A stretch of 64,000 nucleotides of DNA, taken from positions 3,103-67,102 of the IMG/VR virus record IMGVR_UViG_3300020419_000013, one strand, 5' to 3'. The position numbers and the translations under genes were made by a program. This document shows positions 33,396 through 50,141 of this stretch, piece by piece (position 1 is the stretch's first letter; every line of letters starts with the position of its first letter). Source of the DNA: a virus. The notes beneath the pieces were generated by a model. That model was not told where the DNA came from, made no database searches, and worked only from the letters and a program-made list of their open reading frames with translations.

Positions 33396-36300
33396 ATGGC
33401 ACTAACTCGTCTTAAAAATATCATCACATCGAGGACTGGACGTATTATATACGTCAACCCCGATGATTTTGATGCGTCAGATAGTTTTGACAATAGAGGT
33501 AACTCAGCGTTACGTCCATTCAAGACGTTGCAACGTGCGTTTTTAGAAGTATCGAGATTTTCATATAGAGTTGGTTTAAGTAATGACGAATTTGACGCAT
33601 TCAGTATATACCTATATCCCTCAGAGTATGTTTTAGATAATAGACCAGGTTTAACAGATTTTAACCAGATCCAACCATTCAATGAGAATAGTAACTTTGA
33701 TTTAACGTCTGCATCCAATGAGCTTTACAAATTCAATTCAACTCGTGGTGGCATTATTGTACCCAGAGGTTGTTCCGTCGTGGGATCCGACCTCAGAAGA
33801 ACTAAGATTGTACCTAAATATGTGCCGTATCCCACAGTACAAGGATCCCTTGGTATAACTGCTGCTAACGAGCCTACTGCTACTGCAATCTTTAGATTAA
33901 CTGGTGCGACATATTTCTGGCAGATGTCCTTCTTTGATGGGGACAACAACGGTGTATTCTATAGAGACGATCTCTCACAGATAGCACCAAACTTCTCACA
34001 TCATAAACTAACATGTTTCGAGTATGCTAATACTGCTGATCTAAACTTATACTATCAAAAGATCTCAAAAGCATACGCAACGATTCCTGATTCCTCTGGT
34101 ATCATAGCTCAAGACCAATTACAGGCAAGAGTCGAGGAAAACAGAATTGTAGGTCCGATCTCTGATGAATTTGCTGTATCACAGATCATAAGAAATGGAC
34201 AAACAGCAACCGCATTTACCGTGGATGAGTTGGGTAACCCCAAGAACCACGGTTTCTCTGTTGGAGTAGCAGTTAATATATCTGGTGTAACAGGTCCTAC
34301 TGAGCAAGATCAGTTACTATACAATGGATCATTCTTTGTAACGTCAGCACAGGGTAACCAGTTTACCTATCAAATGTCTGCTGAGCCATCTGGTAACGCT
34401 ATTGGATCTAATATTCTTGTTAAGGTTGAGATTGACACAGTTGACTCAGCATCACCATATGTATTCAACTGCTCTCTAAGATCAGTATGGGGTATCAATG
34501 GTATGCATGCTGATGGAGCAGAAGCAACTGGTTTCAAATCCATGGTTGTTGCCCAGTTTACAGGTATATCACTACAGAAAGACGACAGAGCATTCGTATT
34601 ATATAACGCAACTACAGGTCAATATGAAGCACAAGCCGCAGGGTCTGGTGCACACATTAATGGTCTGGCAAAATATCGTAAGGGATGGCGTAACTGCCAT
34701 ATTAAAGCATCCAATGATGCATTTATACAGGTCGTTTCTGTGTTTGCTGTTGGATTTGGTGACCATTTCTTCTCTAGGAGTGGTGGTGACCTATCTATCA
34801 CTAATAGTAACAGTAACTTCGGAAATACCTCTCTCAGATCTACTGGATTTAAGTCAGCAAGTTTCACCAAAGATAAGGCGGGACAGATTACGCACGTTAT
34901 ACCACCTAAATCCTTAGATGATGTAGAGGAAATCTCAGTTAACTGGGTGACTATCGATATTAACAAGACCAGAGCAGCAGCAGATCCAACAAAACTATTT
35001 TTATATGGTTACTCAGTAGAAACTGGCAAACCACCAAGTAAAGTCCAAGGCTATACTGTTGGTGCCAGAAGAGATGATGTCAACACACCTGACAGAGTTT
35101 ATGTCTTGTTGGTAGCATCTGGTGCAAATGAGCCAACAACTCATTACGCAGAGATTGCACCTTCAGGTCCTACTGTAACAGGCACATCACCTGGTGATGA
35201 CGACTCTCCACTCAAGTGGGATGTTACACAAAGCAACTGGTATATTCAAGTAAATGGTAGTGCAAACACAATTTACACTACACTACAGTCTAATACAACA
35301 TATCAAAACTTAGGATTCACACCTACTACATTTGTAAGAAGAATCCCTGATGCTAGAAACCTTGTTGACAGAATCTATCGTTATCGTTACGTCCTTGATA
35401 AAGACGCATTCCCAGTGCCTAGGACACCGATTACTGGTTTCGTTATCGAGCCTAGATCATCAGAAACTAACTCTCCTGCATACTCGAGGACATATTACAT
35501 TTATGCAGTCGAGACTTATCAAGAATTTGTTAGAGGTGTCACCGATGGTATATACTATCTGACATTCCTTAATGCTTCAGTTAGCCCAACTACAACTAAC
35601 TTCAACGACTTCGAGTTCTCACAACAGACAGTCGATCTCTACCCTGCATTTGACAGAGATAACCCAGTTGCAGACCCCTCTGCATCTATCTCTATCGCAG
35701 ATAATGAAGTATTGGGATTAGTGAAGACCACTGATGGTGCATCACCTACACCTAATGAGAATAAACAGTTGTCTATTACAAAAGAAACAACTCAATATTA
35801 TCTACAGGAGTCGCAAAATAACTTAGGATACACTACAGCATCTAACGTGTTGAATGGTATCTCAGTTACTGCACGAGCAGGTGAGGCAGAGGATAGGAAG
35901 ATTCCTCTAAAACTAAATGCTGACAGTAGCGTCCAACCTGTATTAGTAGAGCTGAGACGATATTCAATCCTTAGAGCATCTGGACACACGTTTGAATACC
36001 TTGGTTTCGGACCAGGTAACTATTCAACTGCATTCCCATCTACACAGGTGGAAGTATTGTCACCTGCTCAGGTTAGACTATCACAGTCACTAAAAGAAGC
36101 AGCAGGTGTTGCATACTACTCAGGTGTTAACAGTGATGGTGAATTATTCGTTGGTAACCAGGTTATTAACCCAGTTACAGGTCAGATCACTAACGAAGAT
36201 ATTGCACAACTTAACGTGTTAGGTGAGGAAGGCACAACTATTGAGACATTCTCTGAGTTGGTCTTAACTGATAAACTAACTGTTATTGGTGGTGCATCTA

Positions 36301-36968
36301 ACCAGTTAGAATCAGTATTCTCAGGTCCTGTTACCTTCCAGAAGAAAGTAACATCACAGGATGAGATCCAGTCATTAGAGTTTACATTCTCTAATAATGA
36401 CGGCACGGTGCTGAGAAAAACATTCTTAGCTGAGGATGATGGATCTGGGCTACCTGTTACACAGGCAGGATCAGCATTCAATACAGGAGACATGTGTTAC
36501 AACATTGATTGGGCACCAGGTCAAGCACTTGGTTGGATCTATGATAATAACACATGGTATAAGTTTGGTTTGAGTGATACCGCACCTATCACATCAAATC
36601 GTTATAGTGGCGTCACACACTATGGTGTTGGTATAGCACCCGATGCTACAAATAGAATGAAGATTGGTGGTAACTTCTACATCGATGGTAACCTTGATGT
36701 ATCAGGTAATTATGGATCAGCAGACAAATACACACTTGCAACTGGTATAGCAAACGCAAACAACGGCACAACATATAGTGGCGATGGAGCAACTGCAACC
36801 TTTGCTATCTCTGCAGGTCACACTTCATACTCACTCTTGGTATTCCTTAATGGAGTATGTCAAGTGCCAGGTGTTGACTATCAAGTGAGTGGAAACTCAG
36901 TTGATTTCTCTATAGGTACAGTGCCACAGTCAGGTGACACTATACATGTAAGAGAGTTGGTTATCTAA
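33396..36968 (+). CDS. Large tail fibre/tailspike-like protein with beta-helix region
   Basis: RPFKTLQRA, VGSDLRRTKI, SPYVFNCS, VSVFAVG, SITNSNSNFG motifs of cyanophage fibres. Confidence 0.82.
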   Translation: MALTRLKNIITSRTGRIIYVNPDDFDASDSFDNRGNSALRPFKTLQRAFLEVSRFSYRVGLSNDEFDAFSIYLYPSEYVLDNRPGLTDFNQIQPFNENSNFDLTSASNELYKFNSTRGGIIVPRGCSVVGSDLRRTKIVPKYVPYPTVQGSLGITAANEPTATAIFRLTGATYFWQMSFFDGDNNGVFYRDDLSQIAPNFSHHKLTCFEYANTADLNLYYQKISKAYATIPDSSGIIAQDQLQARVEENRIVGPISDEFAVSQIIRNGQTATAFTVDELGNPKNHGFSVGVAVNISGVTGPTEQDQLLYNGSFFVTSAQGNQFTYQMSAEPSGNAIGSNILVKVEIDTVDSASPYVFNCSLRSVWGINGMHADGAEATGFKSMVVAQFTGISLQKDDRAFVLYNATTGQYEAQAAGSGAHINGLAKYRKGWRNCHIKASNDAFIQVVSVFAVGFGDHFFSRSGGDLSITNSNSNFGNTSLRSTGFKSASFTKDKAGQITHVIPPKSLDDVEEISVNWVTIDINKTRAAADPTKLFLYGYSVETGKPPSKVQGYTVGARRDDVNTPDRVYVLLVASGANEPTTHYAEIAPSGPTVTGTSPGDDDSPLKWDVTQSNWYIQVNGSANTIYTTLQSNTTYQNLGFTPTTFVRRIPDARNLVDRIYRYRYVLDKDAFPVPRTPITGFVIEPRSSETNSPAYSRTYYIYAVETYQEFVRGVTDGIYYLTFLNASVSPTTTNFNDFEFSQQTVDLYPAFDRDNPVADPSASISIADNEVLGLVKTTDGASPTPNENKQLSITKETTQYYLQESQNNLGYTTASNVLNGISVTARAGEAEDRKIPLKLNADSSVQPVLVELRRYSILRASGHTFEYLGFGPGNYSTAFPSTQVEVLSPAQVRLSQSLKEAAGVAYYSGVNSDGELFVGNQVINPVTGQITNEDIAQLNVLGEEGTTIETFSELVLTDKLTVIGGASNQLESVFSGPVTFQKKVTSQDEIQSLEFTFSNNDGTVLRKTFLAEDDGSGLPVTQAGSAFNTGDMCYNIDWAPGQALGWIYDNNTWYKFGLSDTAPITSNRYSGVTHYGVGIAPDATNRMKIGGNFYIDGNLDVSGNYGSADKYTLATGIANANNGTTYSGDGATATFAISAGHTSYSLLVFLNGVCQVPGVDYQVSGNSVDFSIGTVPQSGDTIHVRELVI

Positions 36969-36990: not shown

Positions 36991-37893
36991 ATGTCTACTA
37001 AGATTAATGGTAATCAGATTGACGCTGCCACAAGAGCAATTATTACTGCTCTAACTGTGACAGAGCAGATCAACCTGCCTGCCCTTACTCAAACAGCAAT
37101 TAATGGTCTTGGTACACCTGCCTATGGTACTTTGGTTTATAACACAACCGAAGACATGGCACAGATTTATCTTCAAGATGCTGCTGCAGGAGTGCCAGGT
37201 TGGGATGATGTAGGTGGTGGAGGACCTTCTGTTGGAGAAGATTCCATCGTCCGTACAAATGGACCTACAATCGGTGAGAATCTTACTGTAGGACCTATTG
37301 CAAATGGAGGAGTAGAGTTTACCAATGGTTTCACTGCAGGACCTATTCAGATTGCGAGTGGAAATACAGTTACTATTGAAAACAATGCCACATGGTTTAT
37401 CCTTGGTGGAGAAGAGAATGACCTAAAAGAGGGAGAGGTTGTGCAGGCAAAGTTTGCATCAACACCCCCAGATCGCTATCTAATTAGAAACAATAATTTA
37501 GTGCAGATACCTAACCTCGAAGTATCGATTGCACCTACACATACAAACTCTAAAATTGTATTGATCGCAATGATTACAGGTAATGCTAGACACGTTACGT
37601 CATTTGGTTTCTTCCGTGATGGTAACCTAATTACTAGTGGACTCAACGGAAACTCCAACGTTGGTAGTGGATCTGTAGCGACTACATACACTGGTGACGA
37701 CACTAGTGATCATATGTATTCGTGGCCAGTTAACTATCATGATACACCTGGCACCACAAACGCAGTTACATATACTGTTGGTGCATCTGCATCATGGGGT
37801 GGGTCGATAAGAGATCTCTATATAAATGATAGATCTAGCAATGACATGAGAAGTGTCAGCACACTTTTAGCACTAGAGGTGAGAGGTAACTAA
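36991..37893 (+). CDS. Tail fibre subunit
   Basis: GTLVYNTT, AGPIQIASG, IAPTHTNSKI, DTPGTTNAVTY. Confidence 0.75.
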   Translation: MSTKINGNQIDAATRAIITALTVTEQINLPALTQTAINGLGTPAYGTLVYNTTEDMAQIYLQDAAAGVPGWDDVGGGGPSVGEDSIVRTNGPTIGENLTVGPIANGGVEFTNGFTAGPIQIASGNTVTIENNATWFILGGEENDLKEGEVVQAKFASTPPDRYLIRNNNLVQIPNLEVSIAPTHTNSKIVLIAMITGNARHVTSFGFFRDGNLITSGLNGNSNVGSGSVATTYTGDDTSDHMYSWPVNYHDTPGTTNAVTYTVGASASWGGSIRDLYINDRSSNDMRSVSTLLALEVRGN

Positions 37894-38228
37894 TGATTGA
37901 AGCAGATTGGAAAAAGTTTTGTGAAAGAGTAAGGGATAAGCAAACCATTGCTCAAGATGAGGTTGTAATTAAGGAAGCAATCGAAGCATTGCATCCTGGT
38001 GCAGCATATACAATGACAAACATTGATCCTTATAGAATAGTATTTGGAGATAGTAGAGAATATGATCCAGTTGCAATTCTAACTAAAGTTAAAGATATGA
38101 CTTATACCGTCACTAACTTTAGACCTACAACAAATGAATTGCTTGACAAACTATGGAAAGACTTAGACGCAGGTACGCTAAATACTTCTGGGTCTTTCTA
38201 TGAAGCACTGAAACCCTTTATAAGTTAA
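37893..38228 (+). CDS. Tail-fibre-associated small protein
   Basis: AIEALHPGA; ELLDKLWKD motif shared with 41466 (EQLDMLYKD). Confidence 0.6.
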   Translation: MIEADWKKFCERVRDKQTIAQDEVVIKEAIEALHPGAAYTMTNIDPYRIVFGDSREYDPVAILTKVKDMTYTVTNFRPTTNELLDKLWKDLDAGTLNTSGSFYEALKPFIS

Positions 38229-38229
38229 C

Positions 38230-39039
38230 ATGGCACTATTAAGAGTAAATACAATTCAAGATACGTCAGGTGTTAATGGTTTTAGTATCACTAACACTAC
38301 CATCTCGATCAATGGTACATTGACTGTTAGTGATCTAGTAGTAAACGGAGTTATCTCTGGATCATCATCTTATATCGTACCTTCACAGTCAGGTCAAGGT
38401 GGAAAGTTTATGACTACTGATGGATCTAATCCGTCATGGTCAGCATTGACAACAAGATCTGGAATCAGATCCATGTCAGTGTTTACTGGTAATGGCACAT
38501 GGTCTAGACCAGATGAATGTAAAAACATCATGGTAACATGTGTTGGTGCAGGTGGTGGAGGATCAGGTTATACTGAATCAGGTGGTGCAGGCGGTATGTC
38601 ACAACGTCAAGTTGATGTGCAGAATGTCAGCTCAGTATCAGTAACAGTAGGAAATCCTGGTGGTGGCACAAACTACTCAGGGTGTGGTGGTAATGGAAAC
38701 ACATCATCATTCGGTGGATATTGTAGTGCATCTGGTGGGGTAGGAGCTAATTGCTCTCAGCAACATGCAGGTGGATATGGTGGAAACGGTAGTGGTGGTC
38801 AACTGAATGTGCATGGTGGCGGGGGTAATGGTCATGGATCACACCATAGTTATGGTAACTATTGCTCTGGTGTAAGTTATTATGGAGGTGGACAACCTGG
38901 TGGACACAACCAAGTAAACTGGTCACATAGACATGAATTACACGCAGCGTGGGGATCTGGTGGAAATGGATCTCGACATAGTAACAGAGGTGCCCGAGGT
39001 CGTGAGGGTATTGTTGTTGTGCATGAGTATTGGGGTTAA
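38230..39039 (+). CDS. Gly/His-rich fibre-tip protein, paralog 1
   Basis: PSQSGQGGKFMTTDG linker; VGAGGGGS...GIVVVHEY glycine-rich domain. Confidence 0.75.
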   Translation: MALLRVNTIQDTSGVNGFSITNTTISINGTLTVSDLVVNGVISGSSSYIVPSQSGQGGKFMTTDGSNPSWSALTTRSGIRSMSVFTGNGTWSRPDECKNIMVTCVGAGGGGSGYTESGGAGGMSQRQVDVQNVSSVSVTVGNPGGGTNYSGCGGNGNTSSFGGYCSASGGVGANCSQQHAGGYGGNGSGGQLNVHGGGGNGHGSHHSYGNYCSGVSYYGGGQPGGHNQVNWSHRHELHAAWGSGGNGSRHSNRGARGREGIVVVHEYWG

Positions 39040-39042
39040 CTA

Positions 39043-40632
39043 ATGAGTTTATTAAAAGTATCATCTATTAATGATCTAACCGACACAGGTGGATTTTCTC
39101 TATCTAATGGTGGGGTAACTGCTACACTTCCTTTAGTAGTAGGTAATATTATAATCAACGGAGCGATATCAGGTAATTCTGGACATATCATTCCAAGACA
39201 GGCAGGAAATGCCGAGAAATTATTGCAGACTGATGGATCTAACCTTTCATGGGTAGAAGCAGCAGGACTTGCAGGTATTAGAAGTATGCAGGTGTGGACT
39301 GGTAACGGTACTTGGAATAGACCGTCAGACTGCACTAGTATCATGGTCACAGCCGTCGGAGCAGGTGGTGGTGGATCAGGATATTGTGAGGCAGGTGGAG
39401 CAGGAGGAATGTCTCAACGTGTCATCGATGTAAACAACGTAACATCTGTATCAGTAACAGTAGGAAATCCTGGCGGAGGTACAAACTACGCAGGATGTGG
39501 TGGAAACGGTAACTCTTCAAGTTTCGGCTCCTATGTGACTGGTGGAGGTGGAGGAGGATCAAATTGTATTCAGCAGCACGAAGGTGGTTTAGGGGGAGAA
39601 GGTATTGGTGGTACACTAAACGTATTTGGTGGAGGAGGAAACGCCCACGGATCCCATCATTCCTACGGAAACCACGCAGGAGGAGCAAGTTACTACGGAG
39701 GTAGTCAGCCGTCTTCTCATAACCAAGGTAACTATAGTCACAGACATGAAGCTCACTCAGCATGGGGTGCAGGTGGTAACGGATCACAGCACGGTAATAG
39801 AGGTGCTAGTGGTAGACAGGGAGTTGTCGTAGTCCACGAATACTACGGTAAACCATCATCACCAGATACCAGTTATGGTCAATCATCTGGCAACCCTGCC
39901 CAGTCTGCAGAGGAAATCAAGATTAGAAATCCTGGTGCAGGTGATGGAGTTTATTGGATTAACCTACCTGGCGTAGGAGCAACACAAATCTATTGTCTAA
40001 TGGATAATAGATGGTTAGGTGGTGGATGGATGATGGGTATGAAAGCAACTAGGGGCACCACATTTAACTGGGATTCTAGTTACTGGACATCTAACAACAC
40101 TCTCAACACAGGATCAACAAATACCAACGATGGTGATGCTAAGTTTGAGGTTATGAATAGATTCCTTGCCAAGGACATCATGGGAATCTGGCCAGATATT
40201 GGTAATGGTGGATGTATTCCCGACACCAATAGAGGATGGACATGGTTTGAGACAGACTTCAACACAGGATATGGTAGAGGTGGTAGGATTGAGCCTATTA
40301 ACTTCTGGAATCAGGTAGATAGATTCTATAAATCTAATGCCAACGAATTTTGTGGTATTGGACAATTCTCTGGACAGTCACACGTTAGATTCTACGGATT
40401 TAACTACAGAAACAATCCAGGTTGGGCACGCACACGTTGGGGATTCGGATGGAATGAAAACGGTGGTGGGTCTGGTGGATATCCAGAAGCGGATATGAAC
40501 TCTGATGACGTATCAGGTGGTATTGGTATGAGTGGTAACTTTGGTAGTTACTCAGCAGGAGATCGTATCAACTGTTGCCAGAACCGTAACGGAATAAATA
40601 GATCAGCAAGGATTGAATTGTACTTCAGATGA
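39043..40632 (+). CDS. Gly/His-rich fibre-tip protein, paralog 2, with C-terminal fibrinogen/intelectin-like domain
   Basis: Same Gly-rich domain followed by DGVYWI...IYCLMD...GGGWM. Confidence 0.75.
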   Translation: MSLLKVSSINDLTDTGGFSLSNGGVTATLPLVVGNIIINGAISGNSGHIIPRQAGNAEKLLQTDGSNLSWVEAAGLAGIRSMQVWTGNGTWNRPSDCTSIMVTAVGAGGGGSGYCEAGGAGGMSQRVIDVNNVTSVSVTVGNPGGGTNYAGCGGNGNSSSFGSYVTGGGGGGSNCIQQHEGGLGGEGIGGTLNVFGGGGNAHGSHHSYGNHAGGASYYGGSQPSSHNQGNYSHRHEAHSAWGAGGNGSQHGNRGASGRQGVVVVHEYYGKPSSPDTSYGQSSGNPAQSAEEIKIRNPGAGDGVYWINLPGVGATQIYCLMDNRWLGGGWMMGMKATRGTTFNWDSSYWTSNNTLNTGSTNTNDGDAKFEVMNRFLAKDIMGIWPDIGNGGCIPDTNRGWTWFETDFNTGYGRGGRIEPINFWNQVDRFYKSNANEFCGIGQFSGQSHVRFYGFNYRNNPGWARTRWGFGWNENGGGSGGYPEADMNSDDVSGGIGMSGNFGSYSAGDRINCCQNRNGINRSARIELYFR

Positions 40633-41438
40633 GCACACTTAGAGTTAACAATGTAAAAGACCTTGCAGGTATCTCAGGGTTTGAATTAAGCACTGGTGGT
40701 ATTATTGCCAATGCTACATTGATCGTGGGAGATATTACCATCAACGGTAGTGTTACTGGATCATCAAAATATATTATCCCTAACATGTCAGGTCAGTCAG
40801 GAAAATTCCTGCAGACTGATGGCACAAACCTTTCATGGGTAGAAGCATCATCCGTCTCTGGATTTAGATCAATGCAGGTCTGGACATCTAATGGCACATG
40901 GAGCAAACCTGCTGACTGTAAAACTATCATGGTTACAGTATTAGGTGCAGGTGGCGGAGGATCAGGATATTGCGAAGCAGGTGGTGCAGGTGGTATGTCA
41001 CAGAGAGTTATCGATGTGCAAAATGTCAGCTCAGTATCTGTTACAGTAGGAAATCCTGGTGGCGGTACTAACTACTCTGGATGTGGTGGCAACGGCAACT
41101 CATCTAGTTTTGGTGGTTATTGCTCAGCAGGTGGTGGTGTTGGTGCAAATTGCTCACAACAACACGCAGGTGGATATGGTGGTAACGGCTCAGGTGGTGA
41201 CCTAAACGTCCACGGAGGTGGTGGTAATGGTCATGGATCCCATCACTCATATGGTAACCACGCAGGTGGTAGATCATACTACGGTGGATCGCAACCCTCA
41301 TCACACAACCAAGGCAACTATTCTCATAGACACGAAGGTCATAGTGCATGGGGAGCAGGTGGTAACGGATCACAGCACGGTAATAGAGGTGCCTCTGGAC
41401 GTGTTGGCGTGGTAGTAGTCCACGAATATTATGGCTAA
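40629..41438 (+). CDS. Gly/His-rich fibre-tip protein, paralog 3
   Basis: Highly similar to paralogs 1 and 2 (NPGGGTNYSGCGGNG, HGSHHSYGN, SHRHE). Confidence 0.75.
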   Translation: MSTLRVNNVKDLAGISGFELSTGGIIANATLIVGDITINGSVTGSSKYIIPNMSGQSGKFLQTDGTNLSWVEASSVSGFRSMQVWTSNGTWSKPADCKTIMVTVLGAGGGGSGYCEAGGAGGMSQRVIDVQNVSSVSVTVGNPGGGTNYSGCGGNGNSSSFGGYCSAGGGVGANCSQQHAGGYGGNGSGGDLNVHGGGGNGHGSHHSYGNHAGGRSYYGGSQPSSHNQGNYSHRHEGHSAWGAGGNGSQHGNRGASGRVGVVVVHEYYG

Positions 41439-41465
41439 ATAACTAAGATTAATTTCAGTAATCAA

Positions 41466-41873
41466 ATGAAAAAAGCAATTATCCACGGAGAGTCTGGAAT
41501 TATCACAGACATCTGTGAAGAAGGAGACGAATTTCAGATCTACGATGGTGCTGACGCAACTATGAAGTGGATGGAAGTCCCTGACGACACAACTAACGAG
41601 CATCGTATGGTCAACGGTGTCATCTACCCAAGAGTAGAATTAGAAAATCAAGCAGAAGCATATCTTGTTGCACGCACGATTGCCTATGGTTCTGTGGGTG
41701 AGCAATTAGACATGCTCTATAAAGACCAAGTTAATGGCACAACAACATTTAAAGACCACGTTGCAGCAGTAAAAGCAAACGTACCTAGTCCAAGTAGTGC
41801 ACCTGCATTTACAGAGGATGTTAAGAAAGTGCAAGTAACAGGCAGAATGGCTTGGGATCCATACCCAAGTTAA
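41466..41873 (+). CDS. Tail fibre assembly-like protein
   Basis: Late promoter at 41435; RTIAYGSVGEQLDMLY...HVAAVK. Confidence 0.6.
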   Translation: MKKAIIHGESGIITDICEEGDEFQIYDGADATMKWMEVPDDTTNEHRMVNGVIYPRVELENQAEAYLVARTIAYGSVGEQLDMLYKDQVNGTTTFKDHVAAVKANVPSPSSAPAFTEDVKKVQVTGRMAWDPYPS

Positions 41874-41881
41874 GAAAAGTA

Positions 41882-41898
41882 TGCTATAATCTATAGTA
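41882..41898 (+). promoter_or_regulatory. Extended -10 promoter, probably giving a leaderless mRNA
   Basis: TGcTATAAT ending 7 nt before the halogenase ATG; no RBS. Confidence 0.55.
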
Positions 41899-43373
41899 TG
41901 AAGATTTACATTATTGGTGGTGGGTCATCTGGATGGATGACAGCAACCACAATGCTGACAAAATTTCCCGAAGCAAACATCACAGTCGTAGAGTCGCCTG
42001 ATACACCCCCTGTTGGTGTAGGTGAGTCTACGACTCAGTATTTTAGGATATGGGCAGAATATGTAGGACTCAAAGATGAAGAGTGGATGCCTGCATGTGA
42101 TGCCACATATAAGATTAGTGTAAGATTTAGTAACTTTAATAAGGTAGATGACACACCATGGCAATATCCATTTGGTTATCATATCCAAGATCTACCTCAA
42201 CCTGATGTTTATTTTTGGAATGCATATAAGAATAACTGGAGTAATGATAAATTTGCCCGAGAATATTTTGTATCAGCAGAAGCAGCAGAAAATAATTTAC
42301 TACCCATCAAGCATCCAAACTTTAATCTTAAAAAGAATACTGGATTTCATTTTGATGCAGTAAAGTTTGCACACTGGTTAAAAGACAACAAATGCCAGAA
42401 GGTAAATCATATTATTGGTAAGGTAGATGATTTTGAGAAGGATGGAGACGAAATAAAATATCTATGGATAGATGAGAAACAACATGAAGCAGATTTATAT
42501 TTTGATTGCACTGGATTTGCATCAGTACTTAATAAGTCTGAGTGGTTAGATTATAGTGAGTGGTTACCAAATGATACAGCATGGGTAACACGTCTAGACT
42601 ATAGGGAAGGACATAAGAAAGAGGATCTCAAATCATATACACAGTGCACAGCATTGAGTAGTGGATGGGTGTGGACAGTGCCCACATTTGCCAGAATTGG
42701 GACAGGATATGTATTCTCTAGTAAGCATCAAGATCATCAGAGTGCATTAACAGAGTTTTCAAAATTTCTTAAGTATGATACTGATGGATTTAGGAAAATA
42801 CATTTCAAGACAGGCAGAAAGAAAGAAGGATGGGTTGGTAATGTAGTGTCTATTGGTTTATCATATGGATTCCTAGAGCCATTGGAATCTAATGGTCTGT
42901 TATCAACACATGATAACTTGTTAAGATTCTGTAGGACGTGGAAACCGAACACCACTCAAATGATGAGAGATACATATAACAAGGCGATAGCATTTGGTTT
43001 CGATGGGTTTGCAAGTTTCGTTGCTCTTCATTATGCTCTTACTCAACGTAGGGATTCTTCTTATTGGAGATATGTCTCAAGTATTAGATATCCTGATAAG
43101 GGGATAAATGAAGCAGCAAGAGTCACAATGATGGAAGAGTCACATAATTTTTCCAGTAAACTAAACTTCAATCACAGCAGTGGTGCTTCACTGTTTTGTG
43201 TCATGGCAGGTCATGGATGGAATCCATTTAATGATGTCATTGAAAGTGAGATTAATTTTCATGGTGGAATACCTGATGACTCACATCTAAACAGTTGGAC
43301 ACATGAGTGGAATCGTGATAGACTGGGAGTTAATCCTTTAGATTATTATAATAGGACATTGTATGCAGTATAG
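41898..43373 (+). CDS. Tryptophan-halogenase-family flavin-dependent halogenase
   Basis: GGGSSG, GVGEST, DATYK (catalytic Lys position), WVWTVP, FLEPLESNG. Confidence 0.92.
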   Translation: MKIYIIGGGSSGWMTATTMLTKFPEANITVVESPDTPPVGVGESTTQYFRIWAEYVGLKDEEWMPACDATYKISVRFSNFNKVDDTPWQYPFGYHIQDLPQPDVYFWNAYKNNWSNDKFAREYFVSAEAAENNLLPIKHPNFNLKKNTGFHFDAVKFAHWLKDNKCQKVNHIIGKVDDFEKDGDEIKYLWIDEKQHEADLYFDCTGFASVLNKSEWLDYSEWLPNDTAWVTRLDYREGHKKEDLKSYTQCTALSSGWVWTVPTFARIGTGYVFSSKHQDHQSALTEFSKFLKYDTDGFRKIHFKTGRKKEGWVGNVVSIGLSYGFLEPLESNGLLSTHDNLLRFCRTWKPNTTQMMRDTYNKAIAFGFDGFASFVALHYALTQRRDSSYWRYVSSIRYPDKGINEAARVTMMEESHNFSSKLNFNHSSGASLFCVMAGHGWNPFNDVIESEINFHGGIPDDSHLNSWTHEWNRDRLGVNPLDYYNRTLYAV

Positions 43374-44967
43374 ATCATTTTGTATTGTAGGTGGTGGGTC
43401 ATCTGGTTGGATGGCAGCAGCAACAATGAAGAAGGCATTCCCAGAGTGTGAGGTCAGTCTCATACAACCTGAGGGTAGAAATATTATTGGTGTAGGAGAG
43501 TCTACTTTAGGACATATCAATAGGTTTTTTAGATTTCTTGGATTACATGACAAGGAGTGGATGCCATATTGTAATGCCACATATAAATCATCTATTGCAT
43601 TTAAGAATTTTAGGACAGGAGAGGGAGAGAGATTTCAATATCCATTCGGACGTATAGATCGCAACGATTATCGTAGTGATTATATGACATTCTTTGAGTT
43701 GCAAGTAAAGTATCCACACTTGTATCCACCCGAAGAGTTTGCACGTTTCTTTAATCCAAATACTATTCTGGCAGAAGAGAATAAACTAACGTCTGATTAT
43801 ATTTCCGAAGAAATGCGTAATTGGAATTTTGGTCAAGACACTGCATACCACATGGATAGTCACAAGTTTGGTGAGTATCTACAAAAGAAATTTCCTGAGG
43901 TAAAAGTATACACAGGTAATGTAATCAATGCCACTCGAGGTGAGACTGGTGACGTTATCACTATGAATACAGATAGTGGTGATAGAATCATGGCAGATCT
44001 TTATATTGATTGCACAGGTTTTAAATCCCTGATCCTAGAAAATATGATGGGATCGAAGTTTGTATCATTTAATGATGTATTGTTTAATGACACAGCGTGG
44101 TCAGCAAAGGTAGAGTATTCAGATCGTATCATACAGATGGATAACTATACAGATTGTGTAGCAATGTCTAATGGATGGATCTGGAATATACCACTATGGG
44201 ATAGAGTGGGGATGGGTTATGTATTCAGTCAGAAATATCTTGACCCTGACATAGCACAGGCAGAGTTTATGGGTTATATAGCACAACGCTATTCGCCCAA
44301 AATTGCCGACAATGCTGATTATCGCCTGATTAATATCAGACATGGTAAGAGAGAGAAAGCATGGGTCAATAATGTTGTAGGTATTGGACTAGCATATGGT
44401 TTCCTCGAGCCACTAGAGTCTACTGGACTCATGACTACACATGAGAATCTATTATATCTCGTGGATAGTCTCAAACGTCGTCCTATTACAACTAAGATTG
44501 ATATCGATAGTTATAACTACACTGTAGATCATGCGATTGAGTCTATGAAATACTTTATCGCTATGCATTATTTGTTATCTCAACGTCAAGATACAAAGTA
44601 TTGGGTAGATGCTACTCAAAACACATCTATGTTTAGTAATCATGACTTAACACAATACATGAATGATTGCCTAGGATGGCATTCTATGCTAGAATCACGA
44701 AGGGAATACTTCCAACTCTATGAAGGGTTAAGAAAGAATTTCTGGGCAGATAATAAATTTGATGGACTAATTTATATCGCAGCAGGTCAAGCATACAGAC
44801 CAATTAATGAGCATAGTGTGGATGAAGCACACTTTATTTTCCCACGTCGCAAAGGTGAGGTGGAAAGAGTGCATCAAGATTGGCAGCGTGACCGTAAAGC
44901 GATATATAATCAGGTGAGTCAACTACCAACACACTATGAGTATCTAAGGGATAACATCTATGGTTAA
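43363..44967 (+). CDS. Tryptophan-halogenase-family flavin-dependent halogenase
   Basis: GGGSSG, GVGEST, NATYK, WIWNIP, FLEPLESTG. Confidence 0.92.
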   Translation: MQYRSFCIVGGGSSGWMAAATMKKAFPECEVSLIQPEGRNIIGVGESTLGHINRFFRFLGLHDKEWMPYCNATYKSSIAFKNFRTGEGERFQYPFGRIDRNDYRSDYMTFFELQVKYPHLYPPEEFARFFNPNTILAEENKLTSDYISEEMRNWNFGQDTAYHMDSHKFGEYLQKKFPEVKVYTGNVINATRGETGDVITMNTDSGDRIMADLYIDCTGFKSLILENMMGSKFVSFNDVLFNDTAWSAKVEYSDRIIQMDNYTDCVAMSNGWIWNIPLWDRVGMGYVFSQKYLDPDIAQAEFMGYIAQRYSPKIADNADYRLINIRHGKREKAWVNNVVGIGLAYGFLEPLESTGLMTTHENLLYLVDSLKRRPITTKIDIDSYNYTVDHAIESMKYFIAMHYLLSQRQDTKYWVDATQNTSMFSNHDLTQYMNDCLGWHSMLESRREYFQLYEGLRKNFWADNKFDGLIYIAAGQAYRPINEHSVDEAHFIFPRRKGEVERVHQDWQRDRKAIYNQVSQLPTHYEYLRDNIYG

Positions 44968-45826
44968 AAAACTATGGAAGAAAATTAAAGGTAAGTTTCA
45001 GAAACCGTGGATCCGTTTTTATTCAATGGATGCAGGGGTTGCTGAATTTTATCCTTTATATCCATCTCAGAAATTGAAACGTCAATGGCGAATCAATACA
45101 CTGAAGGAGCAACATAAGAATAAATCTGATTGCCCTGTTGTAGCACTCAAAGAAACCTTTGATAAGCTAAAGATGGAGGACAAAGGTATCAAGGAGCATG
45201 CAGCAACTTGCCCTGCACTCACTCAGATCATGGACAGTGGTTGGATTTTGCCTGCACCTGCCGACTTCGCTATCCGTCCCAATAAAGAGAAAGGCACATT
45301 CCAATGGGTGACACGTCAGTTATTTGTTGGTGGTAAATATGTCACGTCTCATATTGAGAGACAGACAGATGGAATGCGTGATCTTGTAAGTAAAGGACAG
45401 GATACGTTAGGACAGGTGGTGAAACTAGAGACACCGTGGAGGGTTATGGCACACCCCGATGTTTGCATCCTACAGATACCAGTATCTTATAGCGATGACA
45501 TGCGTTTCTCAGCACCTACAGGGATCGTTGATCCATCATTCTCATATGAGATCAACTTGCAACTGTTTTGGCATGCTATGGAGGGAGACCACATAGTTGA
45601 AGCGGGCACACCATTGTGTCAATGGATTCCAATTCCACGCAAATGGTTGGACACAAAAGAGTTTGATGTCATTATTGAGACCGCCAATAATGAGGACTTT
45701 AAAGCAGAAAGGATGATGGATTATCTCAAGACTAAATCGTTTATTGAGAATACCAAACTAAATGACCGCATTAAAGATCACAAGAAAATTAACTCACTAA
45801 ATAAAAATCTAAAGAGGTTTGATTAA
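44960..45826 (+). CDS. DUF6065-like protein
   Basis: TCPALTQIMDSGWILPAPAD, KLETPW, GIVD, AGTPLCQWIP. Confidence 0.55.
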   Translation: MVKKLWKKIKGKFQKPWIRFYSMDAGVAEFYPLYPSQKLKRQWRINTLKEQHKNKSDCPVVALKETFDKLKMEDKGIKEHAATCPALTQIMDSGWILPAPADFAIRPNKEKGTFQWVTRQLFVGGKYVTSHIERQTDGMRDLVSKGQDTLGQVVKLETPWRVMAHPDVCILQIPVSYSDDMRFSAPTGIVDPSFSYEINLQLFWHAMEGDHIVEAGTPLCQWIPIPRKWLDTKEFDVIIETANNEDFKAERMMDYLKTKSFIENTKLNDRIKDHKKINSLNKNLKRFD

Positions 45827-46194
45827 TGGAAGCAGAAAATCTTAGTAGTCCAACTACGGATGAAGTAAAACTCAATGAGTTAGCAGGTGTATCACCTGAG
45901 GAAAAACAAGGTATCTATTGTGATGAGGATGGTAACCCCGTCAAACTCACATACGATCAGTTAGTCCAAGACTTTTGCGATCAGCATAAAGATTGCATGG
46001 CAGACTATAAGAAGATGGGAGAGGCACTAGACAATATGTCTTACTCATCTACTGTTACTCGTGTATCTCTTGAAGGATTACAGGAGAAAAAGGATAAACT
46101 AAACAAACTACAAGGTGCAGTTGAAGCACTATATCTTTATAAGATGCATGTTGACCCAACTGTAACTGACAAAGATTTTACATTTGAAGAATAA
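45826..46194 (+). CDS. Hypothetical coiled-coil protein
   Basis: Coupled 122-aa ORF. Confidence 0.7.
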   Translation: MEAENLSSPTTDEVKLNELAGVSPEEKQGIYCDEDGNPVKLTYDQLVQDFCDQHKDCMADYKKMGEALDNMSYSSTVTRVSLEGLQEKKDKLNKLQGAVEALYLYKMHVDPTVTDKDFTFEE

Positions 46195-46875
46195 ATGATT
46201 AAATGTGATTATTGGTTTCCTCGTGGCATTTGGCACAAGGAAGACTGTGGACTTGATACAGATCATTTTAATGAATTTGCCACTATACATCGTGGATCGA
46301 TGTCAGGTAGGAAAGCATCGAATGAGGGTGGATTCCAGTCATTTGACTGGGGTAGTGAAAGAATGCACACAATTAAACCACTATCTAACTTAACAGAAGC
46401 AGTTTATGATGTCGTAGATGTTGCATGTCAAGATCTAGGTTTCAAAGACTACGCTATGTTGTTAACAAATGGGTGGTTAAACATAAATGGACCTGGTGAT
46501 CTTAATCATGTACATACACATCCTGGTGCAATGTTTGCAGGAGTTTATTACTCAAAAATGCCCGAGAAATGTGGTGGTATCACGTTTATGAGACCTCTTG
46601 ATGAGTTGCATATGTTTAAATCATGGGGCACAGGACATAACTACGACCATGGCACTAACCCATTAAACTTTGAAGTAGCAGCATATGACCCTAAACCAGA
46701 TCAGTTGTTTATATTTCCTGCAAACTTGATGCACAAGGTCGAAACAAACAGGGGTAGTGAAGAAAGAATCTCTTACTCATTCAACATTACATTATACTCT
46801 AAGCATATTAATTATGGTAGTATCCAGAAGTCTATCGAATCTTTTAACAACAACGTATCTGAATCGTCTGACTGA
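46195..46875 (+). CDS. 2OG-Fe(II) oxygenase-like protein (TIGR02466 type)
   Basis: SNEGGFQS, WLNIN, HTHPG, FPANLMHKV, RISYSFN. Confidence 0.88.
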   Translation: MIKCDYWFPRGIWHKEDCGLDTDHFNEFATIHRGSMSGRKASNEGGFQSFDWGSERMHTIKPLSNLTEAVYDVVDVACQDLGFKDYAMLLTNGWLNINGPGDLNHVHTHPGAMFAGVYYSKMPEKCGGITFMRPLDELHMFKSWGTGHNYDHGTNPLNFEVAAYDPKPDQLFIFPANLMHKVETNRGSEERISYSFNITLYSKHINYGSIQKSIESFNNNVSESSD

Positions 46876-47488
46876 TACAATGACTAGTCGAGGGTTTCCG
46901 TGGTATTTTCTACCACATGATGTGACCTTTGGCAGTGGTTATAACTATGCATTTGGCGATGTTAATCTGAATACAGATGACACGGATCTGAAATCCCCAC
47001 CTAAACAAACTAGTGTGGGATGGACTCATGTGTTATATCATGATGGCAACCCAGTCTCACAGTATTATGATCTCTTTATTCCTATTGTAGATCACATTCA
47101 AGATAGATTAGGTGTTGGTATCTTTGAGTTGTTTAGACTCAGGTTGGCAATGCTACATCATAATCATTTCGTAGAAGATTATAATACACCACATACAGAT
47201 CATGATAGTAAACACATGACTGGCATATATTATTTCCACGATAGCGATGGGGATACTATTCTATTCGATCAACTCGATGACCCCAACGGTGATGTTAACC
47301 AACGGATCACCGATATATTTGCACAGGAGTATACAATAGCAGAGAGACATAAACCAGAGAAGAATAAGTTTATATTGTTTGATGGAAATAGATTCCACGC
47401 ATCATCTAATCCTAGAATTAATCAGTATAGGATGGTGTTAAACTTTAACTTCAGACAGATGCCCGATGACATTCTTACTTCCGCTTAA
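46814..47488 (+). CDS. 2OG-Fe(II) oxygenase
   Basis: FPWY, PHTD, YYFHDSDGDT, FDGNRFHASS, RMVLNFN. Confidence 0.85.
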   Translation: MVVSRSLSNLLTTTYLNRLTDTMTSRGFPWYFLPHDVTFGSGYNYAFGDVNLNTDDTDLKSPPKQTSVGWTHVLYHDGNPVSQYYDLFIPIVDHIQDRLGVGIFELFRLRLAMLHHNHFVEDYNTPHTDHDSKHMTGIYYFHDSDGDTILFDQLDDPNGDVNQRITDIFAQEYTIAERHKPEKNKFILFDGNRFHASSNPRINQYRMVLNFNFRQMPDDILTSA

Positions 47489-48188
47489 ATTATTTGATAG
47501 AAATTGGGATCATGATTTGCCATTTTATTATGAGCAGGTCATGGATAAGAAAGAGTGTGATGATATATGCACATGGAAAGATGTTGAATATTGCCTTAAC
47601 TTGCCCAATTTTTTTGACATCGATGTAGTAAGTAAACACCAGATACAAAAGATAAATCCACAGAAACATCCAAGATCGTGGGCAGCACAAGGATGGGAAG
47701 AGAAGAGCGAGTTGTTTCAACTATTCAAGGAAGGTCACACATTCATTATTAATAACTATTCTTATAGAAATGAGAAGGTGATGGATATGTTAGATCAATG
47801 GTCAAGTATATTCTCAGGTGATAGTCAGTTTCAAATATATTGTGGGATGGGACAGTCAAATAGTTTCTATATACATGAGGACTTGCCAAGTAATTTTATT
47901 GTGCAGTTGCGAGGTAAAACTAAATGGAAAGTATTTAACGAAAGGAGAGCAACATTTGTTTCTCAAGCACCACCAGGTGATGGACAGGTAGACTATGATA
48001 GTTTTACACCTGCTATCGATGTGGAGTTAAATGCAGGTGACGCACTATACATACCACCACGTTGTTATCATCAAGCACAACCAAGCGAAGAGAGAATATC
48101 TCTAAGCATACCAGTCCACCACTATTCTTTATATCATGCTCACAGCATTACCAGACCAGTCGATTGGAAATGGTATAACCTCTATTAA
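47466..48188 (+). CDS. JmjC/cupin-4 hydroxylase (ROX/YcfD-like)
   Basis: HED...NFIVQLRGKTKWKV, LNAGDALYIPPRCYHQA, RISLS. Confidence 0.85.
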   Translation: MTFLLPLKLFDRNWDHDLPFYYEQVMDKKECDDICTWKDVEYCLNLPNFFDIDVVSKHQIQKINPQKHPRSWAAQGWEEKSELFQLFKEGHTFIINNYSYRNEKVMDMLDQWSSIFSGDSQFQIYCGMGQSNSFYIHEDLPSNFIVQLRGKTKWKVFNERRATFVSQAPPGDGQVDYDSFTPAIDVELNAGDALYIPPRCYHQAQPSEERISLSIPVHHYSLYHAHSITRPVDWKWYNLY

Positions 48189-48849
48189 TCCATATCCATT
48201 CATACTTAAATCACAATATAATCTCTCAGATATATGGAAAGATATCAAGGGAGAGACAGATATCTTTTTGGATTTTATTGAGAGTCCAGACTCTACATAT
48301 AAAAACTCAGCACTAGAGAAGGGGGGCACATCATCCGTGGGTAGATGTAGAGTTGACCCACCACACGGATGGAAAATTTTTAGTGACCTTACTAACAATC
48401 ATATCCCTAGTGTAGTAGATCAAATTTGGGACATGTGGTCACTTAAAGGTGTCTATCGTAATATGACTGAGAGTTGGATTAATAGACACCCACCCAAGGC
48501 AACAACCTTAGAGCATCATCATCACAATGTAACCGTTGCAATCGTTGCATACTTAGATGTGCCAGAAGACAGTGGTAACCTGCAAATTCTTAACCCTTTG
48601 CATACATTTAAGTATGCAGAACCAGTAGATGATGGATATGAAATGCCTAGACAAGATCACTGGATTGAGATACCAGTTAAGACAAATGATATAGTATATT
48701 TTCCTGGTTGGTTAAAGCATAGGACAGGAGCAAACAACAGTGATACCAATCGATATGTATTAACTATGAATGTCACAGCATATGAAATGACTAACATAGA
48801 TAGAGGTGGATATGATGAGTTTAATAATACTATTGGTTTTATAGAATGA
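48136..48849 (+). CDS. 2OG-Fe(II) oxygenase-like protein (TIGR02466 type); start uncertain
   Basis: SWIN, EHHHH, YLDVPEDSG, FPGWLKHRT, RYVLTMN. Confidence 0.85.
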   Translation: MLTALPDQSIGNGITSINPYPFILKSQYNLSDIWKDIKGETDIFLDFIESPDSTYKNSALEKGGTSSVGRCRVDPPHGWKIFSDLTNNHIPSVVDQIWDMWSLKGVYRNMTESWINRHPPKATTLEHHHHNVTVAIVAYLDVPEDSGNLQILNPLHTFKYAEPVDDGYEMPRQDHWIEIPVKTNDIVYFPGWLKHRTGANNSDTNRYVLTMNVTAYEMTNIDRGGYDEFNNTIGFIE

Positions 48850-49559
48850 AGCATCCATTAATTAAAATATATGATACTGACATACTGGACGATGATATTT
48901 GTCGTCAAGCGATTGAGTTACCTTATTATCATGGACGCCAAGATTTGCCTGCACCTAATCTGGAAGAGGTAGATCTTAGAGGGACATACTACACACATGA
49001 TTTCTATAGTGTAGATCATCATGGAAGTAAACCTTTCGATCAATGCTCAGGTCATCATCTATATCAATGGGTGTTAGATAGACTCGAAGTTTGCTCACAT
49101 GTGCCCGTACCTGCTCGTGATACGTTATACAGTGCATATATGAATGTATTGAAACATGGTGATGCACCTCGTATACATTGCGATGCACCGTCATGGGTTG
49201 ATAATCAATGCACTATGATAGTATATTTTAATCAGAAGTGGAATCCTAACTTTGGAGGTGAAACTATATTCTATGATGACCAGTTAGATATTGTGCACGC
49301 AGTCGTCCCAAAACCAGGTAGAGTGGTCATTTTCGATGGTAGGATACCACACTCAGGACGCACACCAACACCCTATTTCTTATGGAATAGATATATGATG
49401 GCATTCAAGTTTATGGGTAAAGAGGTGAGGAATGAGTTACTTGACTGGGGAAGTAAGAATCACCCATATAAAGATGATGACATGGGTATAGCAGGATTTA
49501 GTCCTAGTAAAGTCAAGGAGTTAATGTATGAGCAAACCCTGTTATTCTGGACAAAATAA
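48846..49559 (+). CDS. 2OG-Fe(II) oxygenase, prolyl-4-hydroxylase-like
   Basis: IHCD, WNPNFGGET, PKPGRVVIFDGRIPHSG. Confidence 0.88.
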   Translation: MKHPLIKIYDTDILDDDICRQAIELPYYHGRQDLPAPNLEEVDLRGTYYTHDFYSVDHHGSKPFDQCSGHHLYQWVLDRLEVCSHVPVPARDTLYSAYMNVLKHGDAPRIHCDAPSWVDNQCTMIVYFNQKWNPNFGGETIFYDDQLDIVHAVVPKPGRVVIFDGRIPHSGRTPTPYFLWNRYMMAFKFMGKEVRNELLDWGSKNHPYKDDDMGIAGFSPSKVKELMYEQTLLFWTK

Positions 49560-49599
49560 GTATCAGATTATATAATAAATACTGTTACTAGTGGGGACT

Positions 49600-49782: not shown

Positions 49783-50086
49783 CAATGCAGATAGAATCGA
49801 ATTACGAAACATTATGAAGCACTTGCAAGTGGGACATAAAGCAAAGTTTGGTGACATGGAAGGCACCATCGAATTTGTTTGTGATGACTACATCACCATA
49901 TGTGTAGGTAAGAAATTAAATCCAGAGGGAGCAAGAAGAAAATATAATAAATGTTGTTTATGTGTCTATAGACAAGACTGGGAAAATGTAGAAGTTGAAG
50001 CAATAAAACAATATGGTAAATCATACACTGGTAAAATTGATGACCATCCTGGAAATGATATGTTACCAGAGGTTGACAAGAGATAA
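49760..50086 (+). CDS. Hypothetical protein
   Basis: GTIEFVCDDYITICV motif. Confidence 0.7.
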   Translation: MTIPLIISNADRIELRNIMKHLQVGHKAKFGDMEGTIEFVCDDYITICVGKKLNPEGARRKYNKCCLCVYRQDWENVEVEAIKQYGKSYTGKIDDHPGNDMLPEVDKR

Positions 50087-50141
50087 TAGTATGTTATAAT
50101 AATTATGGCGAAACAACATTTTTATTATGTTTGTTTCGTCC
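50073..50141 (+). promoter_or_regulatory. Sigma70 promoter followed by a hairpin
   Basis: TTGACA-N16-TATAAT; GGCGAAACAACAT/ATGTTTGTTTCGTCC stem. Confidence 0.55.

Follow-up and report, generated by a model that had tools for sequence, protein, structure and literature searches.

A halogenase and multi-dioxygenase array at the distal end of a cyanomyovirus tail-fibre gene string, and its possible role in tailoring glycine-rich fibre proteins

The DNA analysed here, referred to as the window, is a 64,000-nucleotide stretch (positions 3,103 to 67,102) of the IMG/VR virus record IMGVR_UViG_3300020419_000013, which is itself 67 kb long and ~36% complete. It is a fragment of a T4-like cyanomyovirus near Prochlorococcus phage P-TIM40, and it contains an array of nine plus-strand genes (41898-49559) encoding two flavin-dependent halogenases, two further proteins (here g3 and g4) and five Fe(II)/2-oxoglutarate (2OG) dioxygenases, in which neighbouring genes either overlap by 1-53 nt or are at most 5 nt apart. 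P-TIM40 is 84.6% identical to the window over positions 41400-49700, with identical gene order. An earlier reading made from the letters alone (hereafter the sequence-only reading) had described this nine-gene run, and all nine genes were found on the plus strand where it had placed them; its list of families (two halogenases, two H-x-H and two H-x-D oxygenases, and a JmjC protein) was likewise recovered by Pfam and PHROG scans. It had let the run begin at 41882, however, which proved incorrect: tight packing continues upstream through the fibre genes to at least 29817, and 29817-49559 forms a single same-strand string with gaps of no more than 27 nt. The array does not stand alone but closes the tail-fibre gene string at its distal (3') end.

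The array is almost certainly the P-TIM40-lineage copy of a conserved cyanomyovirus halogenase/multi-dioxygenase array first described in phage Syn9 (gp41-gp54), with which it shares a same-strand tandem of halogenase, gp43-type protein, MINA/NO66-type JmjC protein and several distinct 2OG dioxygenases. Because the Syn9 block was already reported as a tandem halogenase/dioxygenase array by Iyer et al. in 2010 (PMC2938197), the array as such is not new; what is new here is the junction between array and fibre genes, the co-occurrence with glycine-rich (Gly-rich) genes among isolates, their joint replacement, and the recurrence of the association in rearranged layouts.

The first two genes of the array encode halogenases of family PF04820 (curated cut-off 21 bits), i.e. 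Hal1 (41898..43373, 491 aa; E 5.9e-92, 309.3 bits) and Hal2 (43363..44967, 534 aa; E 6.9e-97, 325.6 bits). Set against the halogenase motifs listed in PMC8407142 (GxGxxG, a Lys equivalent to PrnA K79, WxWxIP and a Glu), Hal1 has GGGSSG, K72 (the Lys of ATYK), GWVWTVP (with Val for Ile) and EPLES, and Hal2 has GGGSSG, K75 (the Lys of ATYK), GWIWNIP and E349-PLES, the Hal2 motif residues being invariant across 20 homologues. That both halogenases are intact, as had been claimed, is borne out by the family match and the complete motif set in each. Hal2 is the orthologue of VirX1 from cyanophage Syn10, its residues 4-534 aligning end-to-end with VirX1 residues 5-528 (6QGM; E 1.6e-136), and it is 44% identical to the Syn10 gene by tblastn. 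Hal1 matches VirX1 at E 1.9e-84 and is 37% identical to Hal2 over 410 aa, the C-terminal third being different and not aligning. Since Hal1 is absent from many related loci, where Hal2 alone is kept, Hal2 appears to be the core enzyme and Hal1 an accessory one. VirX1 was reportedly characterised by Gkotsi et al. 2019. According to PMC8407142, it forms a trimer, its active site is large and open, it prefers halides in the order I > Br > Cl, it iodinates many free aromatic compounds in vitro and, as far as that account goes, it has no associated biosynthetic cluster. A predicted complex of Hal2 with g3, each given its own alignment, scored 0.00 against a mark of 0.32, which is evidence neither way. 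Two side observations concern further halogenase genes. A third, short halogenase-like open reading frame (ORF; 381 aa, 2814-3959, plus strand) lies 38 kb upstream of the array, matches PF04820 in two stretches (E 6.6e-17) as well as phrog_2928 (E 6.6e-76), and is about as long as the ~1.1-kb halogenase matches of S-PM2 and P-SSM2. In 19 of the related contigs an extra diverged halogenase pair is present on the opposite strand, ~7-8 kb downstream of the main array.

The third gene, g3 (44960..45826, 288 aa), belongs to the Syn9 gp43 family (phrog_7084, E 3.1e-69) and has no Pfam match even at E<=10, dUTPase families included; among 118 homologous clusters, 117 are likewise without a Pfam domain. 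In an alignment of 24 homologues, C84-P85 and some 17 further positions are invariant. The AlphaFold2 (AF2) model of g3 (pLDDT 86.8) finds trimeric dUTPases as its best Foldseek matches (E 1.8e-4 and below, target TM-score 0.40-0.69, 10-18% identity), so that g3 is predicted to have a dUTPase fold, in agreement with the description of Syn9 gp43 by Iyer et al. (PMC2938197) as a dUTPase-fold protein with a conserved cysteine. The sequence-only reading had called g3 'DUF6065-like'. A distant relationship is possible, given that PF19541 (DUF6065) was found in one of the 24 family members (E 0.01) and is carried by 16-17% of the members of the two nearest Atlas clusters, but the window protein itself does not reach the PF19541 gathering threshold and gives no match at E<=10. 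As an aside, a distant member of the g3 family (26% identity) lies at positions 7881-8675 of the Sf-CH8 sequence examined, surrounded by auxiliary genes for photosynthesis and phosphate and without a halogenase in the vicinity, which shows that this dUTPase-fold family also occurs apart from the array. Downstream of g3 follows g4 (45826..46194), a small acidic protein of 122 aa that matches no family and occupies the same place as its homologues in most related loci.

The remaining five genes encode the dioxygenases. Two of these are of the 2OG-FeII_Oxy_5 type (PF13759), at 46195..46875 (E 2.2e-20; phrog_81; H107-x-H109, H180, R191) and 48136..48849 (E 1.1e-15; HHHH, H, R); they are 25% identical to each other, both have H-x-H instead of H-x-D, and the nearest PDB entries of the first copy (2rg4 and 3bvc) are uncharacterised. 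Of the His-x-Asp/Glu...His metal triad and the basic 2OG-carboxylate residue typical of the superfamily, the other three show HTD...H...R, HCD...H...R and HED...H. The first P4H-like protein (46880..47488; HTD...H) matches PF13640 at E 9e-05, which with 23.8 bits is below the Pfam cut-off of 27, and matches phrog_274 strongly (E 3.3e-37). Its start is probably the ATG at 46880 and not the GTG at 46757, because the P-TIM40 annotation begins at the equivalent ATG. No PDB relative was found for it at E<=0.1. The second P4H-like protein (48846..49559; PF13640 E 1.4e-09; HCD...H), which can barely be aligned with the first, weakly matches a Pseudomonas P4H entry, 4iw3 (E 0.028), which we take to be the P4H/EF-Tu complex. 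Between them lies a minimal JmjC dioxygenase of the NO66/YcfD type (47466..48188, 240 aa; PF08007 E 2.1e-16; H137-E-D139, H202). It matches NO66 and the L16 arginine hydroxylase (E ~1e-4) over residues 120-217 only, i.e. only over the catalytic core of the 373-467-aa chains of the ribosomal oxygenases (YcfD/RoxA, NO66, MINA53), and by this comparison it resembles a JmjC hydroxylase, not a full ribosomal oxygenase. Judging from the alignments, the five dioxygenases are mutually distant and not recent duplicates; the same distance between paralogues was noted for Syn9 by Iyer et al., who read it as selection for co-function (PMC2938197). As to the names of these genes, phrog_274 carries the label 'DNA endonuclease V', and both window proteins that match it also match the 2OG-Fe(II) family PF13640; the labels 'minor coat protein' and 'ferrochelatase' sit on Syn9-run genes that Iyer et al. 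counted as dioxygenases. The public labels on array genes (in the window, Syn9, S-RIM44, HTVC008M and Sf-CH11) look inherited rather than functional.

Profile scans of the window revealed no nonribosomal peptide synthetase, polyketide synthase, ATP-grasp ligase, carrier protein, transporter or precursor peptide, and the picture given by the sequence-only reading, of a tailoring cluster without scaffold synthase or precursor peptide, is supported, the cluster containing tailoring enzymes alone. No short ORF in the run has the leader/core look expected of a precursor of ribosomally synthesised and post-translationally modified peptides (RiPPs), the small proteins being g4, which lacks Trp, and g0 (135 aa), which precedes Hal1 and pairs with Gly-rich genes even where the enzymes are missing. 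A flavin reductase (PF01613), also said to be lacking, was not found in the 67-kb record, of which the ~36% completeness should be kept in mind; following this result, reduced flavin must be supplied by the host.

Upstream of the array, the plus-strand fibre string begins with an ORF at 29817..31157, followed by the tail-fibre genes of phrog_693 (31165..33369) and phrog_529 (33396..36968), a phrog_7459 gene (36991..37893), and a small ORF, p111 (37893..38228; 111 aa, no family), which is conserved in related loci. Next are three Gly_rich_2 paralogues (PF21722, cut-off 24.3 bits) at 38230..39039 (E 2.8e-13, 50.8 bits), 39043..40632 (E 2e-07, 31.7 bits) and 40629..41438 (E 3.3e-11, 44.1 bits), and finally g0 (41466..41873), a phrog_1787 protein that is a member of the Gly-rich fibre module and not of the enzyme set. 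Alignments place the Gly-rich domain at the C-terminal ends of tail-fibre PHROGs. A sequence search of the PDB with the Gly-rich protein GlyA gave nothing significant; matches came from the fold search alone, in which the AF2 model of one paralogue (pLDDT 77.6) had as its top PDB folds the fibre of cyanophage Pam3 (7ypx_A, E 1.1e-7) and the Bxb1 tail tip, with the polyglycine-type domain of ALK/LTK ranking next. By predicted fold, the Gly-rich proteins are fibre-type structural proteins, and the best matches bear out what the sequence-only reading had supposed of them. In virions of S-SZBM1, homologues of the phrog_693, phrog_529 and phrog_7459 genes were detected (734, 1192 and 287 aa; _51 to _53) according to Table 1 of PMC9146016; the gene numbers of the paper were matched here to genes of the S-SZBM1 record by protein length. 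The middle Gly-rich paralogue differs in its extra C-terminal domain of ~260 aa (residues ~270-529), which is Trp-rich, matches phrog_1325 (E 3e-37), and has a weak COLFI hit (E 0.072) as its only Pfam match; this domain may be a second binding module.

The association between these fibre genes and the array was examined in IMG/VR contigs, for which searches were anchored on g3 (best 80 of 366 relatives) and on g0 (best 80 of 229), the two sets sharing contigs, and flanks were annotated with the window's own proteins. In the g3 set a halogenase lies directly upstream of g3 at all 76 loci with room for one, g0 precedes the halogenase in 75 of 75, and a Gly-rich gene precedes g0 in 70 of 70; on the other side, an oxygenase follows within 3.5 kb in 74 of 74 and a JmjC gene within 5 kb in 73 of 74. 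In the g0 set the next gene is a halogenase at 63 of 71 loci and an oxygenase followed by a halogenase at another seven, the sole exception being a contig designated L143, and a Gly-rich gene is found upstream of g0 in all 74. A similar picture emerges from phage genomes: full-length g0 occurs in 20 of 50,697 phage records, which are exactly the records with a halogenase at least 37% identical to Hal2, and the Gly-rich N-domain is present in 19 of these 20, which span Libanvirus, Ormenosvirus, Vellamovirus, Sokavirus, Shenzhenivirus and unassigned phages. The right neighbour of the array varies, being a helicase in P-TIM40 and gp13, the neck gene, in S-RIM44, while the left neighbour stays.

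This variation, a joint replacement and several rearranged layouts look independent of a frozen gene order. The replacement is seen between two Vellamovirus species, S-RIM44 and Syn1. They differ in a mosaic region of ~25.5 kb with flanks that are 97.5% and 94.8% identical, within which the structural and fibre genes are 65-70% identical and the part from the fibre tip to the last oxygenase is without similarity, so that one block has been exchanged that runs from the fibre tip over three Gly-rich genes, g0 and two halogenases to g3 and the oxygenases. The right edge of the mosaic coincides with the end of the oxygenase run, within the last small ORFs. At the exchanged site, Syn1 has two other small genes and one oxygenase, and no Gly_rich_2 match above the cut-off. 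Rearranged layouts preserve the proximity as well: in P-RSM6 and several contigs the fibre genes have an oxygenase gene inserted between them, Sf-CH11 has a P4H-2OG-Hal-2OG-2OG series flanked by two Gly_rich_2 genes, and S-B64 has Gly, g0, small ORFs, Oxy5 and Oxy3 in this order, its halogenase being elsewhere. Pelagiphage HTVC008M has a single Gly_rich_2 gene, at a distance of 0.6 kb from a convergent block whose genes carry annotations as 2OG oxygenases (four) and a 'ferrochelatase'; relatives found around this Gly_rich_2 gene were close ones only (10 relatives, giving 9 loci). Among ten Kyanoviridae records scanned for PF21722, four have none (Syn1, S-PM2, S-MbCM6 and Sf-CH8), and five of the six positive ones have oxygenase genes within ~2.5 kb. 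Separately, in five contigs the Gly-rich genes and g0 are followed by an oxygenase and a set of four halogenase genes among which further oxygenases are interspersed; a g3 homologue is missing there. The sequence-only reading had counted a missing phylogenetic linkage between the cluster and the fibre type among the signs that would refute its proposal; contig synteny, isolate co-occurrence and cassette exchange all speak for such a linkage.

The same reading had also placed an extended -10, probably leaderless sigma70-type promoter in front of Hal1, and had supposed the cluster to be expressed before the late genes. A putative extended -10-like motif, TGCTATAAT (41882..41890, plus strand), is present 7 nt before the Hal1 ATG, but it is conserved in P-TIM40 only (not in Syn9, S-RIM44 or S-CREM1), and the extended -10 motif TGNTATAAT is no commoner in the window than chance (7 versus 5.8 expected). 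The late-type motif TATAAATA (4 versus 5.6 expected; the nearest one upstream of the fibre string at 29778-29785), generic sigma70-like sites (68 versus 60.9 +/- 8.2) and terminator-like sites (9 versus 8.9) are not enriched either, and therefore only position and conservation are informative. A sequence scan of the stretch that separates the cluster from the fibre genes found neither a terminator-like site nor a strong promoter there, and strong sigma70-like sites lie just after the cluster, on the plus strand at 49548..49576 (11/12 matches) and at 50073..50100 (a consensus site with TG extension, 12/12 matches), ahead of small ORFs and a helicase that was identified from Pfam. With a Hal1 motif that is restricted to P-TIM40 and at chance frequency, and with the strong promoters located after the array, early and separate expression is unsupported; the arrangement of the genes points instead to an array that forms the last part of the fibre operon and may have an internal start. 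Contigs from RNA libraries (four marine libraries from four studies) cover both fibre and cluster genes, and in one of these libraries 19 of 24 pieces are at least 99% identical, but such contigs cannot show transcription, strand, starts or timing, and are uninformative on early versus late expression. At the right boundary, the annotated GTG start of the helicase (50177) may be wrong, as it is surrounded by the 12/12 promoter, a GC-rich hairpin followed by a run of T at 50174-50190 and a further TGCTATAAT at 50198-50206.

The leading reading of this locus, which we hold tentatively, is that the array enzymes tailor the phage's own Gly-rich fibre proteins. In the infected cell, the enzymes would use FADH2, halide, O2 and 2-oxoglutarate from the host, through which aromatic side chains would be halogenated and other side chains hydroxylated on the Gly-rich (polyglycine-type) fibre proteins. 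This would take place before or during fibre assembly, and the modification would alter the receptor-binding surface or its stability. As regards substrate, chemistry on the protein and timing, this is a proposal that builds on the observed gene content, catalytic motifs, synteny and co-occurrence and on the folds. It is supported by the restriction of the array to tailoring enzymes, by the invariant junction with the fibre genes, and by the co-occurrence, the block exchange and the recurrence in rearranged layouts. The predicted virion-fibre folds of the Gly-rich proteins and a fibre-cluster boundary devoid of terminator or strong promoter point in the same direction, as do the nearest characterised relatives of the JmjC protein, which are protein hydroxylases (the match of the P4H-like protein to the Pseudomonas P4H being weak). 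The large open active site of VirX1 and its lack, in the description of PMC8407142, of a known biosynthetic gene cluster also fit. Of the fibre decoration put forward in the sequence-only reading, the linkage, the fibre-type neighbours and the tailoring-only content have thus stood, and the early expression has not. A more specific version, i.e. that the array iodinates or brominates as well as hydroxylates the receptor-binding fibres, with the Gly-rich proteins being the missing natural substrate of VirX1-type halogenases, is somewhat more doubtful. As far as the open-access literature on cyanophage halogenases, Syn9, VirX1 and P-TIM40 goes, a modification of fibres has not been proposed.

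Several observations weigh against fibre tailoring. To our knowledge, the flavin-dependent halogenases of nature are documented to act on peptides and on small molecules, free or carrier-bound, but not on folded proteins, and no modified fibre protein has been observed so far. In P-SSM2 the Gly_rich_2 gene (PSSM2_126), located between gp16 and gp17, has no annotated oxygenase within 7 kb, and in S-B64 and S-H35 the halogenase is far from the Gly-rich gene. Among 19 contigs related to L143, which are not T4-like in look, 14 have a Gly-rich gene, and 13 of these 14 are without an enzyme gene in the available flank (the exception being a cyanomyovirus), where it should be noted that these contigs are often short and that the enzyme profiles were made from cyanophage enzymes and could miss divergent oxygenases. 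It follows that Gly-rich fibres do not, in general, need the enzymes. In five of the L143-related contigs a Gly-rich gene is followed by g0 without enzymes, and g0 is paired with Gly-rich genes at six enzyme-free loci, L143 included, which is why g0 is assigned to the Gly-rich fibre module. The virion list of S-SZBM1, as given in PMC9146016, includes neither the Gly-rich proteins (_48, _49) nor g0 or the enzymes; this can be read either way, because that search covered standard modifications only and the proteins offer few tryptic sites. Furthermore, much of the synteny count is shared ancestry and not a series of independent events. Finally, the site where the fibre genes meet the next module may simply be one at which T4-like phages collect accessory genes, making the adjacency positional, and since Syn1 has a lone oxygenase at this site without a Gly-rich gene, position could explain part of the pattern.

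A different view is found in the literature. For the Syn9 array, Iyer et al. proposed the synthesis of organohalogen secondary metabolites (PMC2938197), which later reviews share, and in reviews the cyanophage halogenase figures as an auxiliary gene of unknown role. Tailoring of a small molecule, in which a host-derived amino acid or metabolite is halogenated and hydroxylated to give an organohalogen secondary metabolite or changed host metabolites, would agree with the iodination of many free aromatics by VirX1 (PMC8407142) and with the finding that, in metabolite clusters of bacteria, the same families accompany peptide synthetases, TonB receptors and SapC (PMC2938197). Ten of 66 records matching Hal2 (S-MbCM6/S-MbCM25, S-PM2 and P-SSM2; 27-32% identical) moreover hold the halogenase away from the fibre genes, and that of S-SSM6a is described as lying within a sugar and amino-acid metabolite cluster (PMC7824862). 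We nevertheless consider it unlikely for the present array: neither a scaffold-forming enzyme or carrier protein nor a transporter or precursor gene turned up in the window (the scan of 160 related contigs used the window's own genes only and could not reveal scaffold or transporter genes there), the JmjC and P4H-like members resemble protein hydroxylases, and it does not account for the way in which the array accompanies the Gly-rich fibre genes in rearranged layouts and in a cassette exchange.

Positional adjacency can also be taken further, to the point where there is no joint pathway at all and the array consists of independent auxiliary genes at a permissive module boundary, acting for instance in 2-oxoglutarate turnover tied to nitrogen status or in nucleic-acid or protein repair. 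Sullivan et al. 2010 link cyanophage 2OG oxygenases to 2OG/NtcA (nitrogen) physiology and DNA repair (PMC3037559), 2OG oxygenases are scattered in S-SZBM1 (PMC9146016), the number and order of oxygenases differ between lineages, and the same fibre/gp13 boundary also holds oxygenases in Syn1 and HTVC008M, where the Gly-rich genes are different or absent. Against this stand the apparent translational coupling along the run, with its overlaps and minimal gaps, the constant halogenase-g3 order and nearly constant JmjC gene among the best 80 of 366 relatives, and the fact that the paralogues are distant and not recent duplicates; a halogenase, furthermore, has no obvious role in 2OG turnover or repair. 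This makes independent genes a distinctly unlikely explanation. Even less probable, in our estimation, are other protein targets, whether host proteins (ribosomal proteins or elongation factors, as for NO66/YcfD and bacterial P4H) or other phage proteins, through which translation would be redirected or defence evaded. The closest solved relatives of the JmjC protein are indeed ribosomal-protein hydroxylases and one P4H-like protein weakly matches 4iw3, but the matches concern the catalytic core only, a JmjC protein of 240 aa has no room for the dimerisation and winged-helix domains that ribosomal oxygenases have in addition, and the array has no tie to translation genes but a strong one to fibre genes.

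The question of the natural substrate of cyanophage halogenases dates from the first cyanomyovirus genomes and persisted after VirX1, and the purpose of the tandem dioxygenase arrays has been a question since 2010. Tying the array to one class of fibre genes turns a vague question on auxiliary metabolic genes into a concrete one, namely whether the Gly-rich proteins are hydroxylated or halogenated. If the more specific version is correct, with the Gly-rich proteins as the substrate of VirX1-type halogenases, it would be the first case of a flavin-dependent halogenase acting on a folded protein and of a virus chemically tailoring its adhesin. A positive answer on these proteins would add a new layer to host recognition in phages of the most abundant marine phototrophs and a new kind of protein substrate to halogenase biocatalysis. 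If the fibre proteins turn out to be unmodified, attention returns to small molecules.

Compared with known systems, the Gly_rich_2 protein of the window resembles, in its modelled fold, the Pam3 fibre proteins (7ypx, 7yfw) and the tail tip of mycobacteriophage Bxb1 (9d93), with E 1.1e-7 to 1e-5 and 21-25% identity. MibH, an enzyme of the Trp-halogenase family, has as its substrate a polypeptide made by the ribosome and not a free amino acid; MibH-type RiPP systems comprise a short precursor peptide and further maturation enzymes, and the window lacks such a precursor. With VirX1 (6QGM), Hal2 shares its full length and the same GxGxxG, Lys, WxWxIP and Glu motifs, a likeness seen in the protein sequence, while Hal1 is a more distant paralogue with its own C-terminal third. 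The closest counterpart of the array as a whole is Syn9 gp41-gp54 (PMC2938197), which likewise combines two halogenase genes of the tryptophan type with a gp43-type protein of dUTPase fold and conserved Cys, a JmjC protein of the MINA/NO66 type and several unrelated classical 2OG dioxygenases, in a one-strand tandem after the fibre genes; the Gly_rich_2 proteins of Syn9 are gp38 and gp39. It differs in having ten dioxygenases, compared to the five present here, and a gp44 of 73 aa, compared to the 122 aa of g4, and it does not have the motif found upstream of Hal1 in the P-TIM40 lineage. For Syn9, Iyer et al. proposed metabolite synthesis and, so far as their account of this array goes, made no mention of a link to fibre genes (PMC2938197). 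The same study does describe bacterial operons in which a collagen-like or tail-collar Gly-rich protein is paired with beta-hydroxylase or PhyH-type dioxygenases, the Gly-rich protein being the predicted substrate (PMC2938197). The window shows a comparable pairing, with the differences that the bacterial operons include sulfotransferases and no halogenases, and that the Gly-rich protein of the window is, by its predicted fold, a phage fibre.

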